Of a stretch of DNA of 64,000 nt, positions 45,960 through 54,823 are shown in pieces. Source of the stretch: Acutalibacteraceae bacterium (lineage in GTDB: Bacteria > Bacillota > Clostridia > Oscillospirales > Acutalibacteraceae); contig JAZNBX010000023.1 in the NCBI GenBank assembly GCA_045587265.1, positions 6,047 through 70,046 on the forward strand. Reading direction: 5' to 3'. The notes beneath the pieces are model-generated. The model saw nothing but the letters and a program-made list of their open reading frames with translations, was not told the origin of the DNA and made no database searches. A program made the translations under genes and the position numbers. Positions within the stretch are counted from its first letter, which is position 1, and the number at the start of each line of letters is the position of its first letter.

Positions 45960-47315
45960 ATGAATAAGAATGATTTAATACAATTAAGTATAACCGATTT
46001 GACGGGTGGTGGCGACGGTGTTGGCCACGCACCTGATGGTAGGGTGGTTTTTGTTCCCAATACTGCAGTTGGGGACGAGATTTTGGCGCATATTTTAAAG
46101 GTAAAGAAAAAATATGCTTTTGCAAAAATCCACGAGATTTTAACCCCTGCCGAGAGTAGAATAGAAAGCAACTGCCCAATTTCTTCAAGATGTGGCGGTT
46201 GTGTATTTCGTCATATAAGTTATAAAAAAGAGTGCGAAATAAAGAAGCACCAAGTTGAAAATTCTTTTAGGCGCATAGGCGGTCTTGATACCCCTATAAA
46301 CGAGATAATTGGTGCCGAAAATATTGATTTTTATAGAAATAAGGCGCAAATTCCGGTAGGTGTTGATAGAGACGGCAAGGTTATTTGCGGTTATTATACT
46401 AAAAGTAGCCATAGAATTGTACCTTTAAATGATTGCCGCTTGCACCCAGAAGTTTTCGATATTATTATTAAAAAGTTTACCAACTGGGCAAACGAAAATA
46501 GAATTTCGGTCTATGATGAAAAAAGCGGCAAGGGGCTATTGCGCCACCTTTATATAAGGCGTGCGGCAAAATCTAGCGATATAATGGTGCTTGTTGTTAT
46601 TAACGGCAAGGAACTGCCAAAAGCCCAAGCCCTTGTAAATTCGCTTACCGAACTATCCGAGATAAAAAGCGTGCAGATTAACGTAAACCTAGAAGACACT
46701 AATGTTATTCTTGGCAAAAAATGTGTAGTTTTGTATGGAGAGGATAGTATTGTAGACGTTATCTGCGGCGTTAAAATTCGTATATCTCCTTTGGCTTTTT
46801 ATCAGGTTAATCACACAATGGCACAGAAACTTTATAATAAGGCTAAAGAATTGGCAGAGCCAAAAGATAAGGTTGTTTTAGACCTTTATTGCGGTGTTGG
46901 CTCAATAGGTCTTTCTATGGCAAAAGATGCTAAAGAAATCGTCGGCGTAGAGATTATACCTCAAGCGGTTGAGGATGCAAAATTCAACGCAAAACTAAAC
47001 GGCACCCAAAATGCAAGATTTATCTGTGGTGATGCCGCAAAGGCAGTAAAGGATTTAGAAAAGCAGGGAATAACCCCCGACGTTGTAATTCTGGACCCGC
47101 CAAGAAAGGGTTGCGATGCCTCGCTTATCGAAACGGTTGCAACCGAATTTTGCCCCGAAAGAATAGTATATATATCCTGTAATGACGCTACCTTGGCTCG
47201 CGATTGCGCCATTTTCAAGGAGTACGGCTATAAAACAGTAGAAGCCACCCCCGTAGACCTCTTTGCAAGGACGGGGCACGTAGAGGTCGTAGCAAAATTA
47301 GAAATGGAAAAATAA
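45960..47315 (+). CDS. rlmD: 23S rRNA (uracil-C5)-methyltransferase RlmD/RumA family
   Basis: TRAM domain, Fe-S Cys cluster CPISSRCGGCVFRH, SAM motif LDLYCGVGSIG, catalytic YISCN. Confidence 0.9.
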   Translation: MNKNDLIQLSITDLTGGGDGVGHAPDGRVVFVPNTAVGDEILAHILKVKKKYAFAKIHEILTPAESRIESNCPISSRCGGCVFRHISYKKECEIKKHQVENSFRRIGGLDTPINEIIGAENIDFYRNKAQIPVGVDRDGKVICGYYTKSSHRIVPLNDCRLHPEVFDIIIKKFTNWANENRISVYDEKSGKGLLRHLYIRRAAKSSDIMVLVVINGKELPKAQALVNSLTELSEIKSVQINVNLEDTNVILGKKCVVLYGEDSIVDVICGVKIRISPLAFYQVNHTMAQKLYNKAKELAEPKDKVVLDLYCGVGSIGLSMAKDAKEIVGVEIIPQAVEDAKFNAKLNGTQNARFICGDAAKAVKDLEKQGITPDVVILDPPRKGCDASLIETVATEFCPERIVYISCNDATLARDCAIFKEYGYKTVEATPVDLFARTGHVEVVAKLEMEK

Positions 47316-47468: not shown

Positions 47469-47542
47469 AGGGGCATGATGTAATGGTAACATTCCGGTCT
47501 CCAAAACCGTCCTTGAGGGTTCGAGTCCTTCTGCCCCTGCCA
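47469..47542 (+). tRNA. tRNA-Trp (CCA)
   Basis: 74 nt. Acceptor AGGGGCA/TGCCCCT, anticodon loop CTCCAAA, T-arm GAGGGTTCGAGTCCTTC, encoded CCA. Confidence 0.92.
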
Positions 47543-47609
47543 AAAAAGAAACCACCCAACAGGGTGGTTTTTTGCATATAATAAAATAAGAAGGACTCGA
47601 ACACCGAGG
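47525..47609. repeat. 85-bp direct repeat, copy 1 (tRNA-Trp 3' 18 nt + terminator + 36 nt)
   Basis: Identical base for base to 47722-47806 (offset 197) on my comparison. Confidence 0.9.
47549..47573 (+). terminator. Intrinsic terminator after tRNA-Trp
   Basis: AAACCACCC/GGGTGGTTT stem followed by TTT. Confidence 0.85.
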
Positions 47610-47721
47610 GGGTCTCACCGTAAAGAAAAATAGTCCGGTGGACTGTTTTTTAGGTGAGAGGTGCGCAGACGGGTACTGCGAACAAGGTGAGCGGTCGTCA
47701 AGCAGGGCAAAAATTTTTTGC

Positions 47722-47806
47722 GTCCTTCTGCCCCTGCCAAAAAAGAAACCACCCAACAGGGTGGTTTTTTGCATATAATAAAATAAGAAGGACTCGAACA
47801 CCGAGG
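47722..47806. repeat. 85-bp direct repeat, copy 2 (orphan tRNA-Trp 3' end + duplicated terminator)
   Basis: Identical to 47525-47609. There is no tRNA body upstream of it. Confidence 0.9.
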
Positions 47807-49285: not shown

Positions 49286-49317
49286 AAAAAGCAGGTGCGA
49301 AAGCATCTGCTTTTTGT
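49286..49317 (+). terminator. Intrinsic terminator
   Basis: GCAGGTGC/GCATCTGC stem followed by TTTTT. Confidence 0.75.
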
Positions 49318-49345
49318 TTACTTGCAAGAAATTTTGTGGTATACT
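49317..49345 (+). promoter_or_regulatory. Probable promoter of the PHP/EutH-like operon
   Basis: TTTACT, a 17-nt spacer, then TGgTATACT. Implies a ~135-nt leader containing the AACAC/box module. Confidence 0.5.
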
Positions 49346-49426
49346 ATTAAAAACAGTGTTAAAATGAGTATTACCTACAACGTAACACGAAATAACACAC
49401 CTTAAAACTATAAAAAAACAAATAAC

Positions 49427-49455
49427 TTTGTGACAAAAATACGTGTAAAGAAAAA
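49427..49455 (+). repeat. Box copy A: TTTGTGAC-N7-CGTGTAAAGAAAAA
   Basis: 26 of 30 positions match copy B (51772-51800). Lies about 32 nt upstream of the TTG start at 49487. Confidence 0.7.
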
Positions 49456-49486
49456 CATAATGTGAAATATAAGGGAGATATAATTT

Positions 49487-50299
49487 TTGAAGCAAAATTT
49501 ACATATTCATACAACTTACGCAGACGGAAAAGATTCACCAGAAGAAATCGTTTTGGCGGCTATTACAAAAGAATTTGACTCTATTGGTTTTTCCGAGCAT
49601 ACTTATATGAAATTTTCCAACTATCCATATCAAATGACAATAGAGAAAATGCAAAAATATAAAGATGAAATACACCGTCTAAAAGAAAAATACAAAAACC
49701 AAATAGAAATTTTTTGCGGTTTAGAATACGAATTGTTTTCAGAAGTTACTGCAAATGATTTTGACTATATAATAGGTTCGGTGCATTACCTTGATTTTGA
49801 CGGAAAAAAGATTGGTTTTGATAAAGGGGTAGACGAAACTCAAGATTTTATCAATGAAAATTTTAATGGAGATGCTTTGAAATTCGCTGAAAAATATTAC
49901 CAAACACTGTTATTGTTACCTCAAAAGCTTAGTGTTGATATAATAGGGCATTTTGACTTGATAACCAAAACAAATGAAATAAGACCTTTTCTTGATGTAC
50001 GCTCAAATGAATATCTAAATCTTGGATACGAGGCGATTCATAATTTAAAAGGTAAAATTCCTTTTTTCGAAGTCAATACAGGTGCTATTGCAAGAGGATA
50101 TAGAACTATACCGTATCCTCAAATAGAATTCTTGAAAGAATTCAAGAAGTGTGGTTTTGGTGCGGTAATAACTTCTGATTGTCATAATAAAGACTTTCTT
50201 GATTGCAATTATTGTGAAGCGAAAGAAGTACTTGAAGAAGCCGGTTTTAACACAAAATGGATTCTTACTGTAGATGGTTTTAAAGAGGTTGAACTATGA
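49487..50299 (+). CDS. PHP-domain phosphatase (HisJ/histidinol-phosphatase family)
   Basis: NLHIHTTYADGKDSPEE, GFSEH, GSVHY, IGHFD metal-ligand pattern. TTG start after AAGGGAG. Confidence 0.8.
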   Translation: MKQNLHIHTTYADGKDSPEEIVLAAITKEFDSIGFSEHTYMKFSNYPYQMTIEKMQKYKDEIHRLKEKYKNQIEIFCGLEYELFSEVTANDFDYIIGSVHYLDFDGKKIGFDKGVDETQDFINENFNGDALKFAEKYYQTLLLLPQKLSVDIIGHFDLITKTNEIRPFLDVRSNEYLNLGYEAIHNLKGKIPFFEVNTGAIARGYRTIPYPQIEFLKEFKKCGFGAVITSDCHNKDFLDCNYCEAKEVLEEAGFNTKWILTVDGFKEVEL

Positions 50300-51363
50300 A
50301 CATACTAACTATAATAGTGGTTTCCTTTTCTGTTTTAGGTGCGGTTGACAAACTGCTTGGAAATAAAATAGGAATTGGAAGCGAGTTTGAAAAAGGCTTT
50401 AAGCTTTTTGTGCCAATGGCTTTTTCAATGCTTGGAATACTTGTAATTGCGCCCGCTGTGGGTGTTTGGCTAACACCTGTTTTTGATTGGTTTTATGCTG
50501 CATTTAAAATAGACCCTTCCATAATACCTGCATCGCTATTTGCAAACGATATGGGAGGCATGACTCTTGCAAATTCAATTTGCAAATCTGAAAACATAGG
50601 AAATTATAATGCTTTTGTTGTATCCTCTATGATGGGTTGCGTAGTTTCATTCACCATACCATTTGCCATTAGTGTAGTCAAAAAGGAACAACATAAAGAA
50701 ATGTTTTTAGGTATTCTTTGCGGCATAGCAACCATTCCCATAGGTTGCTTTGTAGCAGGACTGATTTGCCATATCAATATTTTAGATTTGTTTATGACCC
50801 TGTTGCCATTGATTGTGTTTTCAGTGCTTTTAGTGGTTTTACTTATTACTTTGACAAATTTTTGTATCAAAATATTTGTAGTGCTTGGAAATATTATCAG
50901 ATGGATATCAATGATAGGTCTAGTGTGCGCAATATTCACTTTTTTAACAAAAATTGAAATATGTCAGTATTTTGATAGCCTTGAAAATGCTGCGTTTATT
51001 TGCGTAAATGCTTGTGTAACCCTGTCAGGAATGTTGCCGTTTATGTACGTTGTTTCTAAACTTATTAATAAACCTATGGATAAAATAGGAGCAAAAATCG
51101 GGATTGATTCACTCTCTGCATTTTCCTTCATTTCAACCCTTGTCACAAATGCGACCGCATTAAGTTCTATGGAAAGAATGAATAAAAAAGGGGTTGTTCT
51201 CAATTCGGCATTTGCTGTTTCGGCGGCATTTGTATTTGGTAGCCATTTGGCGCTAACGATGGCATTCAATGCTGATTACATATTACCTATGATTGTCGGT
51301 AAAATTGTTTCGGGTGTATCGGCAGTTATTTTAGCACTATTGATTTATAAGGATAGAGAATAA
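50296..51363 (+). CDS. EutH-like permease (ethanolamine-utilisation protein EutH family)
   Basis: N-terminus ...GAVDKLLGNKIGIGSEFEKGF resembles EutH. About 10 TM segments. Its ATG overlaps the upstream stop (ATGA). Confidence 0.7.
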   Translation: MNILTIIVVSFSVLGAVDKLLGNKIGIGSEFEKGFKLFVPMAFSMLGILVIAPAVGVWLTPVFDWFYAAFKIDPSIIPASLFANDMGGMTLANSICKSENIGNYNAFVVSSMMGCVVSFTIPFAISVVKKEQHKEMFLGILCGIATIPIGCFVAGLICHINILDLFMTLLPLIVFSVLLVVLLITLTNFCIKIFVVLGNIIRWISMIGLVCAIFTFLTKIEICQYFDSLENAAFICVNACVTLSGMLPFMYVVSKLINKPMDKIGAKIGIDSLSAFSFISTLVTNATALSSMERMNKKGVVLNSAFAVSAAFVFGSHLALTMAFNADYILPMIVGKIVSGVSAVILALLIYKDRE

Positions 51364-51404
51364 AACATTGAATTACGAAAAACAACAAAAAAGGAGTGAG
51401 AACG

Positions 51405-51677
51405 ATGGACAAATTTGTTTTACATTCAAAATATAAGCCTACAGGCGACCAACCAGAGGCTATTGAAAAATTGACCGAAGGGCTCAAAAATGGCTTAACA
51501 GAGCAGGTTTTACTTGGTGTTACCGGTTCGGGTAAGACCTTTACAATGGCGAATATTATCGCAAATGCAAACAAACCGACCCTAGTTCTCGCTCACAACA
51601 AAACACTCGCCGCACAACTTTGTAGTGAATTCAGAGAATTCTTCCCCGAAAACGCGGTGGAGTATTTTGTATCCTAA
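51405..51677 (+). pseudogene. Truncated uvrB 5' fragment (RBS + 90 codons including Walker A, then stop)
   Basis: [23 protein letters not shown]...[14 protein letters not shown]...EYFVS* aligns colinearly with residues 3-92 of the intact UvrB at 52856. Confidence 0.9.
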
Positions 51678-51768
51678 TACAAGATTTGCACTAAAAACCG
51701 TCACAAAACACCGTTTTTAGGGGCTTTTTAACACCAAATAACACAGAATAACACTGTATAAACCAAAT

Positions 51769-51793
51769 AAATTTGTGACCTAAATTCGTGTAA
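51769..51793. repeat. 25-bp perfect direct repeat, copy B (AAATTTGTGACCTAAATTCGTGTAA)
   Basis: Identical to 52741-52765. Lies upstream of the LRR gene. Confidence 0.9.
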
Positions 51794-51828
51794 AGAAAAA
51801 ATAATTACTTTTCAGGAGTGAAACTATT

Positions 51829-52698
51829 TTGAATTTTTCTTTTAAATCTTTTGCTGATGGCAGTTTTGACTACGACAAGAAAACGGAAACACATACAGGT
51901 TTGTATCTTCGTGAAGAAAAAGCCGACATTAGCGGCGGTAAAATTAAGTTTTCAGATATAGATGTACTTAAAAATTATCCTAATGTTGACACTGTTACCG
52001 TTTCGGGGCTTAATCAAGAAACCTTTGAATATTTTATACTTAACTATGGTAAACAATTAAAAGCAATTCGATTTTTCAAGAATAAGCAAATTGAGGATTT
52101 GTCTCTTTTAGGCACACTTCCACAATTAGAATATCTTTATTTTTTCGCAAATCAAAAAGTAACACAGCTTTGGGATATGTCGAATAATACTTCTTTAACA
52201 GGAGTTTGCATTGAGGATTTTTCAAAGCTCAAATCCATAGTTGGCATTGAAACTGCACCCAACCTAAAATATTTTACAATCGGCAACGCAATTTGGGATA
52301 CTGCAGAAATTGAAAGTTTTATGCCTCTTGCGAACACTAAAATTGAATATTTGTCCTTTACGGGCAAAAAGATTACAGACAATGATTTTTCGTTTTTGTC
52401 TGATATGTTGCAATTAAAAGAGTTTGATTTTTCATTACACTTTTTGACAACCGAACAGGTTGCTTGGATTGTTGCTAATTTCCCACACTTGAAAGGTTTT
52501 GCTTTAAAAGCAAAACACGATTGTGAACTGTTTAAAAGCAATGAAGATTTGACAAAAGTTCCTGCAACAATTATTGTTGGTAAAAGAAAGCCGTCACTCA
52601 AAATTGAGGGGAATGAACAACGAATTAAAAATTACGAGTTAAAATTTGAGGCGTTAGTAGAGAAATATAAGGGCAAAAAATATTGTGAGATTTTTTGA
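51829..52698 (+). CDS. Cytoplasmic leucine-rich-repeat (LRR) protein
   Basis: TTG start after CAGGAG. No signal peptide. Repeated LxxLxxLxL-type units (LSLLGTLPQLEYLYF, LTGVCIEDFSKLKSIVGIE, NLKYFTIGN, IEYLSFTG, LKEFDFS). Confidence 0.65.
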   Translation: MNFSFKSFADGSFDYDKKTETHTGLYLREEKADISGGKIKFSDIDVLKNYPNVDTVTVSGLNQETFEYFILNYGKQLKAIRFFKNKQIEDLSLLGTLPQLEYLYFFANQKVTQLWDMSNNTSLTGVCIEDFSKLKSIVGIETAPNLKYFTIGNAIWDTAEIESFMPLANTKIEYLSFTGKKITDNDFSFLSDMLQLKEFDFSLHFLTTEQVAWIVANFPHLKGFALKAKHDCELFKSNEDLTKVPATIIVGKRKPSLKIEGNEQRIKNYELKFEALVEKYKGKKYCEIF

Positions 52699-52740
52699 TG
52701 TTGAATACTCGGCTGAATATTTTGTACTGAATACGACTAC

Positions 52741-52765
52741 AAATTTGTGACCTAAATTCGTGTAA
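52741..52765. repeat. 25-bp perfect direct repeat, copy C
   Basis: Identical to 51769-51793. Lies 91 nt upstream of the uvrB start. Confidence 0.9.
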
Positions 52766-52855
52766 TTTACTATTCGCCAACTTTTTGAGTAAAATTTTAG
52801 AGAATTTAAGACAAGAAAATGGCAGAAAATAATCAAAAAAGAGAGGAGTGAGAAC

Positions 52856-54823
52856 GTGCCGGATAAGTTTATTTTACATTCAAATTATAGTCCTACCGGT
52901 GATCAACCTGAAGCGATTGAAAAACTCACTGAAGGCATCAAAAATGGCTTAAAAGAGCAGGTTTTACTGGGTGTTACAGGTTCAGGTAAGACCTTTACAA
53001 TGGCGAATATTATTGCAAATGTTAATAAGCCGACGCTAGTTCTCGCTCACAATAAAACCCTTGCCGCACAACTCTGTTCAGAGTTCCGCGAATTCTTCCC
53101 CGAAAACGCGGTGGAATATTTTGTTTCCTATTATGACTACTATCAACCCGAGGCGTATATCCCGGGAACCGATACCTATATCGAAAAAGATTCGGCTATA
53201 AATGACGAGATTGATAAACTCCGCCACTCCGCCACCTGTGCACTATCCGAGCGTCGTGACGTTATAATCGTTGCATCGGTTTCTTGTATATATTCTTTAG
53301 GTAACCCTATAGATTACCGCAATATGATAATTTCTTTGCGCCGTGGCGAAGAAAAGGATAGAGATTGGCTTCTGCGCAAACTCGTAAAACTTCAATACGA
53401 GCGCAACGATATTAACTTTATTAGAAACAAGTTCCGTGTTCGTGGCGACGTTGTTGAAATTTTCCCTGCCTACTCGGGCGATACTGCAATTAGGGTTGAG
53501 TTCTTTGGCGATGAGATTGACCGTATAACCGAAATAAACGCGCTAACGGGCGAACTAAAATCCGACCTTAGCCATATTGCAATTTATCCCGCATCGCACT
53601 ATATCGTGCCCGATGATAAAAAAGAGCAGGCTTTGCAAAACATTCTTGCCGAGATGGAAGAACGTGTTAAATATTTCAAGGAAAACGATAAACTTATAGA
53701 GGCGCAACGCATCCGTCAGCGTACCGAGTACGACGTTGAAATGCTAAGGGAAATCGGTGTCTGCAAGGGTATAGAAAACTATTCTCGTGTGCTTTCGGGC
53801 AGACCCGAGGGCAGTGTGCCGTTCACTCTTTTGGACTATTTTCCTGATGATTTTCTGTTGTTTATTGACGAGTCGCACGTTACAGTTCCGCAGGTTCGTG
53901 GTATGTACGGTGGTGATAGGGCAAGAAAGGAAAATCTGGTAGAATACGGCTTCCGCTTGCCATCGGCTTTTGATAACAGACCCCTTAATTTTGAGGAGTT
54001 TTATAAGCATCTTAATCAAGTGGTGTTTGTTTCTGCAACCCCGCAACAGTTTGAGCGAGAAAAATCTGCGCAAATCGTAGAGCAGGTTATTAGACCGACA
54101 GGTCTAATAGACCCCGAAATTATAGTAAAACCTGTTGAAGGTCAAATCGACGATATTGTTTCTAATATAAACGAAATAACCGCCCGTGGCGAGCGTGTGC
54201 TAATAACCACTCTGACCAAAAAGATGGCGGAAAGCCTTACGGAATATCTTGAAAATCTTGATATAAAGGTAAGGTATATGCACTACGACGTTGACACCAT
54301 AGAGCGTATGGAGTTAATCCGCGACCTGAGGCTTGGCGGGTTTGACGTGCTTGTCGGCATTAACCTTTTGCGCGAGGGTTTGGATATACCCGAAGTATCC
54401 TTAGTAATGATACTTGATGCCGACAAAGAGGGCTTCTTGCGTTCGGAAACTTCGCTTATACAAACAATAGGTAGAGCCGCAAGAAACGCTAAAGGTCAAG
54501 TAATAATGTATGCCGATAGCGTAACGCCATCTATGGAGCGCGCTATTACCGAAACCTTGCGCCGTCGTGAGATACAAAAAGCCTACAACGAGGCACACGG
54601 AATAGTGCCAAAAACCATCAAAAAAGACGTTCACGAAATAATTGAAATATCAAGTCCTGCAGATAAGGTTAAAGAGAAACCTGCAAAGCAACTAACCAAG
54701 TACGAGCGTGAAATGCTAATTAAACGCTTGACGGCAGAAATGAAGCAGGCGGCAAAACTTTTAGAGTTTGAGCACGCCGCAATGATTCGTGACCGAATTG
54801 AAAAGTTAAGAAAGCAAAAATAA
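52856..54823 (+). CDS. uvrB: Excinuclease ABC subunit B
   Basis: GTG start after [18 protein letters not shown], helicase motifs, C-terminal UVR domain ([15 protein letters not shown]). Confidence 0.97.

Follow-up and report, generated by a model that had tools for sequence, protein, structure and literature searches.

A leucine-rich-repeat gene between 25-bp repeats at uvrB of an Acutalibacteraceae genome as the probable cargo of an integrase-less unit in a tandem array

Introduction

Heterobivalent tyrosine integrases use arm-type sites, as exemplified by the P and P' arm sites of phage lambda and the DR-2 repeats of Tn916. Some elements integrate at the end of a gene and carry a replacement for that end, among them phage 21 and e14 in icd and the Streptococcus pyogenes prophages and SpyCIM1 in mutL. 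For the ICESt1/ICESt3 family of integrative conjugative elements (ICEs) in Streptococcus thermophilus, both cis-mobilizable elements (CIMEs) and tandem accretion have been described (Pavlovic 2004; Bellanger 2011; CIME definition in PMC5704250). The present report concerns a stretch of 64,000 nucleotides from the genome of an Acutalibacteraceae bacterium (assembly GCA_045587265.1, contig JAZNBX010000023.1, positions 6,047 to 70,046 of the forward strand), hereafter the window, in which a gene for a leucine-rich-repeat (LRR) protein stands between two copies of a 25-bp repeat upstream of the repair gene uvrB. The LRR gene is probably the single cargo of an integrase-less unit of ~1.06 kb, which would belong to a family of mobile elements inserted by tyrosine recombinases at about codon 93 of uvrB, the window probably containing a tandem array of three decayed units of this family.

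Results

Organization of the uvrB locus

The 25-mer AAATTTGTGACCTAAATTCGTGTAA occurs at 51769-51793 and again at 52741-52765 on the same strand without a mismatch, the two copies being 972 bp apart, and the bases outside the copies are unlike each other from the first position on either side. No match was obtained in 100 dinucleotide-preserving shuffles, and none is expected by chance. A preliminary description of the window had pointed out this pair with its immediately diverging flanks, and had named the LRR gene as the only gene between the copies and its product as a protein without signal peptide; all of this was borne out. The 289-aa LRR protein is encoded by the only substantial open reading frame (ORF) in the interval (51829-52698), and lacks a hydrophobic N-terminus (15-aa Kyte-Doolittle means within the first 45 aa reach at most -0.11). 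The GC counts reported there for two short samples, 14/60 at 52021-52080 and 24/60 at 53401-53460, are exact. Over the entire features the GC content is 32.4% for the LRR gene, 43.3% for uvrB and 39.5% for the whole window, in which a low-GC stretch extends from ~49150 to ~52900.

The 25-mer is built as a tandem of two half-sites of ~11 nt, AAATTTGTGAC and AAATTCGTGTA, with a period of 13. A diverged third copy (21/25) was detected at 49424-49448 within a module of ~73 nt common to 51729-51800. This module contains TAACAC repeats at a 10-nt phase, and its upstream version, in unit 1 as defined below, is 82% identical to 51729-51800. Within the genome of the window (1.6 Mb in 56 contigs), the uvrB locus is the only place where the 25-mer, the gene for the LRR protein or the 5' segment of uvrB occurs, and no further 25-mer with up to 3 mismatches was found outside this locus.

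The ribosome-binding site (RBS) and codons 1-93 of uvrB are also duplicated, at 51393-51677 and 52845-53134, in direct orientation, with 85% identity and 1454 bp apart. The downstream copy belongs to the intact uvrB gene (52856-54823; 655 aa, by ORF and domain annotation). The upstream copy, referred to as uvrB', is truncated and consists of the RBS GGAGTGAGAAC, an ATG at 51405, the codons to ~93 and a TAA at 51675-51677. The likeness between uvrB' and uvrB stops right after ...TATTTTGTxTCCTA, and the stop codon of uvrB' lies just past this junction. Three copies of a putative uvrB crossover core were located. The first (51648-51680), at the junction between uvrB' and unit 2, and the third (53102-53140), within the functional gene where it encodes ...ENAVEYFVS/YYDYY, were recognized as repeats and by the alignment of junctions from relatives. 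The second, a core-like copy at 52703-52740, forms the right boundary of the LRR unit and directly abuts the right 25-mer; it is identical to the third at 28/39 positions, and the alignment score is 16, whereas 2000 shuffles gave a mean of 6.9 with an sd of 1.3 and a maximum of 14.

Because three core copies lie between them, the segments of the window read as three units, all features being on the plus strand. Unit 1 (49383-51680) comprises a diverged left-arm module with TAACAC iterons and the 21/25 copy of the 25-mer (49383-49448), a cargo at 49487-51363 consisting of the genes for a PHP-domain phosphatase (49487-50299, PF02811) and an EutH-family permease (50296-51363, PF04346), and a surrogate uvrB 5' end that is now truncated (51393-51677). 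Unit 2 (51681-52740) comprises a left-arm module (51681-51768) identified by cross-locus conservation, with three TAACAC iterons at 10-nt phase (51729-51762), the left 25-mer at the inner edge of this arm, the LRR gene and a short core. The LRR gene (51829-52698) starts with TTG 36 nt past the 25-mer, has the RBS AGGAG and matches LRR_4; no promoter of its own was detected. Unit 3, the 'restorer' (52741-53134), has the right 25-mer as its first bases, and continues with a right module (52766-52855) recognized by cross-locus conservation and promoter scan, in which a promoter-like TTTACT-18-TAAAAT (52766-52795) is followed by the uvrB RBS GGAGTGAGAAC (52845-52855). It ends with codons 1-93 of the intact uvrB (52856-53134), which the ICE comparisons given below (G004/G042 and L061/L092) suggest to be the surrogate 5' end supplied by elements of the family. 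Since uvrB-derived cores separate the units, the two 25-mers bracketing the LRR gene would be arm sites of unit 2 and unit 3 and not crossover cores. The start of the left module was also tried as a degenerate 25-mer, but this reading was rejected, since its score of 7 does not stand out from the null (6.0 +/- 1.1, p = 0.28).

Upstream of unit 1 lies a host segment with the intrinsic terminator of an fn3-protein gene (49286-49315; 13-bp stem and T-run) and the displaced host uvrB promoter (49317-49345; TTTACT-17-TGTGGTATACT with extended -10), which now reads into the PHP-EutH genes. In four related genomes with an empty site (G010, G011, G005 and G026), which have a single uvrB and lack the motif, the segment corresponding to 49286-49345 is located directly upstream of uvrB, and the terminator and the extended -10 promoter directly abut the gene. 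The host promoter is thus conserved immediately 5' of uvrB in the empty sites, and it is found 5' of uvrB' in two occupied relatives (G004 and G009). The host-derived uvrB fragment expected ahead of unit 1 appears to have been deleted, the host promoter joining the diverged arm directly.

The PHP-EutH cargo of unit 1 has a GC content of 33.6% and was not found at the uvrB site in the other loci examined. The phosphatase and permease genes overlap by ATGA and occur without other eut genes. They lie directly behind the displaced host promoter, and no terminator was detected before uvrB' and the LRR gene.

Relatives and full-size elements

A total of 40 related genomes were searched for the 25-mer and its uvrB context. 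Several congeners carry the 25-mer (0-3 mismatches) beside a uvrB that is only ~80% identical to that of the window. Loci with other genes between two 25-mers exist, a situation for which the preliminary description had proposed to look among relatives. One genome (G001) has three copies of the 25-mer at uvrB, with an Fe-ADH-like gene and a barnase/barstar pair between them, and another (G009) shows the order uvrB', 25-mer, 167-aa ORF, uvrB. When the junctions were aligned, each truncated uvrB copy was found to run to ...GAGTATTTTGTxTCCTA and then to switch to a conserved element end, composed of a hairpin-like stretch, three TAACAC iterons and the 25-mer. Two loci, L083 and L048, contain tandem junctions in the order 25-mer, right module, N93, core, left module, 25-mer. 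The possibility that L083 is a circular contig was rejected, as it has no terminal overlap and contains a tandem junction instead.

Full-size elements were recognized at the same site. In G004, uvrB' and uvrB sit on separate contigs; the left junction is followed by genes for ParA, ParB and a SpoVG-like protein, and the right junction shows two tandem tyrosine integrases (407 and 426 aa), then the 25-mer and then uvrB. In G042, both element ends are on one contig, with 81.7 kb from uvrB' to uvrB. Its transfer genes code for a MobA/VirD2 relaxase (PF03432), a NikA-like protein, a TraG/VirD4 coupling protein (PF02534) and a VirB4-like ATPase (AAA_10/TraG P-loop), and other genes for a Tad-type T2SSE ATPase, an S24 repressor, SpoVG, ParA/ParB and the two integrases int1 and int2 (both PF00589). 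With an integrase, a relaxase, a coupling protein and a VirB4-type ATPase between attachment (att) repeats, the G042 element is a conjugative element. The int1/int2 pair adjoins the conserved 22-nt part of the 25-mer (see below) in five more loci (L042, L043, L058, L070 and L092). Both integrases match only generic tyrosine-recombinase models of NCBIfam, below the cut-off, and int1 gives 21.2 bits against PF14657 (Arm-DNA-bind_4), just under the cut-off of 22.3. No homologue of int1 or int2 was found in the 90%-complete genome of the window, the best match being 32%.

The comparison of G004 with G042 indicates which of the two uvrB 5' copies travels with the element. The right copies are 85% identical at the nucleotide level and the ICE genes 78-85%, against 69% for the rest of the host uvrB and 69% for the left copies; a Lachnospiraceae pair, L061 and L092, shows the same pattern (95% vs 73%). 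Because the right copy matches the ICE genes in identity and the left copy matches the host gene, the surrogate 5' end of full ICEs is element-borne and the left copy is the displaced resident. Correlations across 13 loci for an element-borne 5' copy are weak (0.55 for left copies, 0.35 for right copies).

From these observations a mechanism can be proposed. The family would insert by tyrosine-recombinase-mediated site-specific recombination at uvrB codon ~93, in the DNA for ...EYFVS/YYDYY. Autonomous members would be conjugative elements of up to ~82 kb with two tandem tyrosine integrases at the right end. This end would bring a promoter, an RBS and replacement codons 1-93, by which uvrB stays intact and the resident 5' end remains as uvrB'. 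Arrays such as that of the window would arise by decay and tandem accretion, with the units parted by copies of the uvrB core. A visiting full-size element could mobilize the small units, either in cis or in trans, and cargo such as the LRR gene may be transcribed from the displaced host uvrB promoter.

Some loci of the relatives show additional features. In L088 (SVPY01000014; 2209-2933 and 6111-6371), a longer uvrB pseudogene fragment (codons 1-93 plus ~154 more) was found in addition to a standard uvrB'-plus-25-mer junction, indicating that arrays can also trap bigger uvrB pieces. One of the cargo blocks of G001, at L025 (G001:C77, 4742-5676), codes for a 205-aa protein, in which a KDPG-aldolase fragment is fused to a barnase-type ribonuclease domain, with a barstar gene after it, and represents a toxin/inhibitor pair within the uvrB array. 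For conspecific polymorphism, an exact-UvrB look-up and a host-specific 30-mer scan of metagenomes gave no matches.

Distribution and conserved ends

The exact 22-mer TTTGTGACCYAAATTCGTGTAA was found in 117 stretches of species-representative genomes. The hosts belong to Acutalibacteraceae, Oscillospiraceae, Ruminococcaceae and Lachnospiraceae (including Dorea, Blautia and Mediterraneibacter), and thus to at least two orders of gut Clostridia; the viral, plasmid and phage collections searched did not contain it. Its context was read in 80 fetched loci, in which it lies ~92-100 nt past uvrB' or ~112-145 nt ahead of intact uvrB, always in the orientation of uvrB. The possibility that the 25-mer is a dispersed regulatory motif, which the preliminary description had named as the outcome that would speak against it, is ruled out by the occurrence at a single locus in this genome and by the linkage elsewhere, nearly always, to uvrB.

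The ends of the family are conserved independently of what lies beyond them. Between loci with unrelated upstream cargo (~50% identity) and a uvrB of 62-74% identity, the ~118 nt from the 25-mer to the uvrB start codon are 94-99% identical, and loci carrying unrelated cargo share 90-98% identity over the segment that links the end of uvrB' with the 25-mer. Downstream of the 25-mer, 44 distinct classes of sequence were counted, all of which join it at one and the same nucleotide. The cargo of small elements includes the LRR protein, the 167-aa ORF (two species), a GH35 glycosidase, the barnase/barstar pair and unannotated ORFs of 712, 545, 327, 270 and 243 aa, several with N-termini resembling those of membrane proteins or lipoproteins. 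Immediately 5' of the right-type 25-mers, the sequence met most often is similar to the uvrB crossover core (20 of the 43 right-type copies above the 99th percentile of the null, and about 30/43 by eye). Copies without a core-like sequence are mainly at ends with int2 upstream, and the adjacency of core and 25-mer is general in integrase-less loci.

The LRR unit

The order uvrB', 25-mer, LRR, 25-mer, uvrB is also present in five other species (L035, L036, L060, L074 and L098). The LRR protein is 92-100% identical in amino acid sequence in these five loci, compared with 66-83% for UvrB. At the DNA level, identity is 90-100% over a block that starts ~40 nt upstream of where uvrB' ends and reaches as far as the start codon of uvrB, and divergence at the level of the hosts resumes within both flanking uvrB copies. 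The unit is flanked by the uvrB-core copies at 51648-51680 and 52703-52740, its left arm (iterons and 25-mer) matches the left ends of the ICEs of G004 and G042, and it carries the LRR gene only, the genes for integration and transfer being absent. Judging from this pattern of identity, the LRR unit seems to move between species without an integrase of its own.

The structure of the LRR protein was predicted. A single-sequence fold was uninformative (pLDDT 55), and a model from an alignment of 35 sequences (pLDDT 91, pTM 0.87) consists of an LRR solenoid with a C-terminal helical cap, for which the best PDB matches are internalin domains (TM 0.4-0.5). The predicted fold is therefore that of a generic internalin-like LRR solenoid. 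The family includes more than 460 clusters of ~290-aa proteins, mostly unnamed, and the protein gave no matches in PADLOC and NCBIfam. An orphan immunity cassette, as the preliminary description had suggested, is not what the data favor: the fold is generic, PADLOC and NCBIfam give no match, no toxin gene was found inside the unit, and the cargo of sister units is unrelated.

Two homologous loci outside the array setting were noted. An ENA Hadza metagenome contig (L158, 2099-4900) encodes an LRR homologue of 64% identity (P0088, with 240 member sequences), whose gene directly follows that of an HNH/HNH_5 protein of 547 aa and precedes five unannotated ORFs; this HNH neighbor is the only hint from context of an inhibitor or immunity role for the LRR protein. 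In another ENA contig (L161, 4001-7010), an 82%-identical LRR gene lies directly upstream of uvrB-uvrA with a promoter-like sequence of its own, without 25-mers or uvrB', and is followed by a palindromic pair of degenerate half-sites, AAGTTCGTATAA...TTACACGAACTT. This locus looks like an older, fixed and decayed version of the LRR unit.

Role of the 25-mer

Across the loci compared, the 25-mer appears as the most conserved non-coding sequence of the family and occupies the inner edge of the element arm. Its distance from the core is 0-90 nt, toward the element, and in full ICEs it is present at both ends, that is, in the att arms outside the crossover core. It is best read as a putative protein-binding arm site of the integrase or integrases; the 25-mer, and perhaps the TAACAC iterons as well, might be bound by an arm-binding N-terminal domain of these enzymes. 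The preliminary description had taken the repeats as attL/attR cores or as cassette boundaries exchanged by recombination. What stands of this proposal is a footprint of site-specific recombination that marks the boundaries of the cargo; the 25-mers themselves are rejected as the crossover cores, the uvrB-derived repeats at 51648-51680, 52703-52740 and 53102-53140 being better suited to this role.

In integrase-bearing right modules (12/37 distinct modules), an inverted half-site, TTACACGAATTT, is found 40-65 nt downstream of the 25-mer; in modules of the window type this position is degenerate. The 25-mer can pair with a downstream arm in 10/67 contexts, 8 of which have a T-run, and T.G wobble is tolerated. 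The T-run and the tolerated wobble indicate that this minority of copies act as terminators. The copies of the window have neither hairpin partner nor T-run, their best fold is -5.8 kcal/mol and no terminator was called. Termination was thus rejected as the reason for the conservation, both for the window copies and for most contexts, a hairpin with T-run being found in 8-10/67 contexts elsewhere.

An alternative that we consider unlikely makes the 25-mer itself a crossover site. Its full form is a palindrome, GACCTAAATTCG-TGTAAT-CGAATTTAGGTC, with the shape of a tyrosine-recombinase core, and one of the two integrases, which are always present in the family, would insert or exchange single-gene cassettes in integron-like manner inside the ends of the uvrB element; the pair of copies flanking the LRR gene would then result from the insertion of a circular LRR cassette. 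Palindromic versions do exist, but the partner arm is missing in 57/67 contexts, and where it exists the T.G wobble and the T-runs point to an RNA terminator. The cargo shared by G001 and L088 begins exactly at the 25-mer, where the identity rises from ~35% to 86-99%, but this shared block stops ~450 nt on, short of the next 25-mer. Exchange at the 25-mer would account for the identical starting nucleotide of the 44 downstream classes, for a 'naked' internal 25-mer between two cargo blocks in G001 ('naked' copies refer to individually inspected cases only) and for the duplicated right-type 25-mers with extra inserts in L103 and L105; yet an empty pad, with left module, 25-mer and right module but no cargo, was encountered neither among ~100 occurrences nor in a metagenome scan. 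The 100% identity of the window 25-mers, which the uvrB cores do not share, also fits such exchange, but uvrB-core repeats already bound the LRR unit and are a sufficient explanation.

It is improbable that the 25-mer is mainly a transcriptional signal, either an operator for the outward uvrB promoter or the 5' half of an insulating terminator or both, which recurs as each unit keeps it. The right copy abuts the -35 of the promoter-like TTTACT-18-TAAAAT at 52766-52795, and the inverted half-site TTACACGAATTT brackets the promoter region in integrase-bearing right modules, but the left copies are followed within 20-60 nt by the RBS and start codon of the cargo without a promoter. Full elements encode an S24 LexA-like repressor as a possible ligand of an operator. 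With respect to termination, a downstream arm pairs with the 25-mer and is followed by a T-run among the 10/67 contexts, whereas hairpin partner and T-run are absent at both window copies, and the retention of an exact 22 nt in two orders, with the remainder of the modules diverging to below 70%, is unusual for a terminator. A transcriptional role would, moreover, be compatible with that of an arm site. Finally, if the promoter and 5' region of uvrB had been duplicated locally in tandem and the LRR gene inserted later, without any mobile element, this would explain the direct repetition of the uvrB RBS and codons 1-93 1454 bp apart, but is hardly credible, since it is refuted by modules and LRR units 90-100% identical in species of two orders with a uvrB of 62-83%, full conjugative elements use the same junctions, and the host promoter is present once and not duplicated.

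The preferred reading, an array of decayed units in which the 25-mers are arm sites, has several points against it. That an integrase binds the 25-mer is something we infer, and the match of int1 to Arm-DNA-bind_4 stays below the cut-off. In small elements, the right copy of uvrB codons 1-93 shows only host-level identity beside a right module of 94-99%, the divergence beginning at the start codon. Since this copy is not conserved together with the module, the pattern is not predicted by movement of intact units from core to core, and an extra homologous exchange is required; it could arise if crossovers took place on the left only in the conserved core, and on the right only in the RBS or the right module. 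Furthermore, the right 25-mer of integrase-bearing elements is not preceded by a core copy, and for these elements its interpretation as the left arm of a next unit is therefore not the whole story. Lastly, the finished genome of Mediterraneibacter glycyrrhizinilyticus f23 (G041, NZ_AP031414) contains a single exact 22-mer (2349166-2349187) at a distance of 1.27 Mb from uvrB; the family may use another site, or this copy may be an internal relic. Genes for ParA/ParB are located ~4 kb downstream of this copy, and no uvrB' is nearby.

A more far-reaching and rather doubtful view would regard the uvrB site as a cassette dock. The restorer would keep uvrB alive, any number of ~1-kb single-gene units, each with a short uvrB-like core of its own and an arm with the 25-mer, could insert before it, and species of two orders would exchange these units by means of the two integrases of visiting ICEs, the 25-mer possibly serving as a second crossover site. 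The cargo would be expressed from the displaced promoter, and the system would amount to an integron-like capture device derived from ICE att sites. The displaced host uvrB promoter may be damage-inducible.

Neighboring sites

A 90-nt direct repeat (47520-47609 and 47717-47806; 98% identical, 197 bp apart) is located ~1.5 kb upstream of the uvrB array. It duplicates the 3' end and the terminator of a tRNA-Trp gene (47469-47542), and looks like a second att-type scar. Just upstream, at 45960-47315, is a gene for a TRAM and tRNA(U5)-methyltransferase protein of the RumA type. The 3' ends of rumA genes are a known target of streptococcal ICEs.

Discussion

The family of ICEs inserting into uvrB, together with its miniature derivatives, is apparently undescribed: no description of uvrB as an attachment site was found in the literature searched, and uvrB is not named in a review on integrative mobilizable elements. 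The 22-mer TTTGTGACCYAAATTCGTGTAA beside a uvrB fragment can be used as a marker for a widespread family of conjugative elements and miniatures in gut Clostridia. In at least two orders, its target is a stretch that ranks among the most conserved of uvrB, and an SOS-type repair gene is re-promoted from element DNA. Its recognition should be useful for the annotation of metagenome-assembled genomes, in which these loci break assemblies and yield calls of a 'duplicated uvrB', and for studies of gene flow in gut communities. The arrays also offer a compact natural system for accretion and for mobilization in cis and in trans.

The closest counterparts among known systems are the CIMEs. As in these, the units lack integrase and transfer genes, retain att sites that resemble the ones of a full ICE, and stand in tandem at one site with core repeats between them; decay and accretion, by which CIMEs are defined (PMC5704250), would account for the uvrB array as well. 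Unlike with CIMEs, the target is protein-coding DNA in the 5' part of uvrB (codon ~93) and not a 3' gene end, and a promoter, an RBS and 93 replacement codons are supplied by the family. The units are also very small, ~1 kb with one gene, and the unit at 52741-53134 consists only of an arm and a surrogate 5' end. The parent ICEs possess two tandem integrases, and mobilization is putative in this family.

With arm-type sites of heterobivalent integrases, the 25-mer shares its character as a conserved short repeat beside the core, with variable cargo beyond it; it consists of two ~11-nt half-sites, of which some right modules contain inverted copies. The paired integrases may have an N-terminal domain resembling an arm-binding one, the int1 match being below the cut-off. 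It differs in that a 22-nt core is exact between lineages whose integrases are only ~52% identical, which is above the usual conservation of arm sites, and in that a minority of the 25-mers double as a terminator stem. Like integron cassettes, the cargo consists mostly of single promoterless genes in one orientation, arrayed behind a fixed promoter and very diverse. In contrast to integrons, no IntI is involved (int1 gives 32 bits and int2 27 bits against the integron-integrase model, the cut-off being 265). The boundaries are uvrB-core repeats and a sequence-conserved 25-mer, mostly without hairpin partner, instead of a structure-conserved attC, and the array lies inside a housekeeping gene.

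The prophages and islands in icd and mutL resemble the uvrB family in that the attP region copies part of the target gene, the gene stays functional and the displaced fragment is left as a direct repeat; the uvrB family differs from them as a conjugative element with miniature derivatives. ICEs, CIMEs, accretion and gene-end replacement are all known concepts, and the uvrB family is a new case of them.

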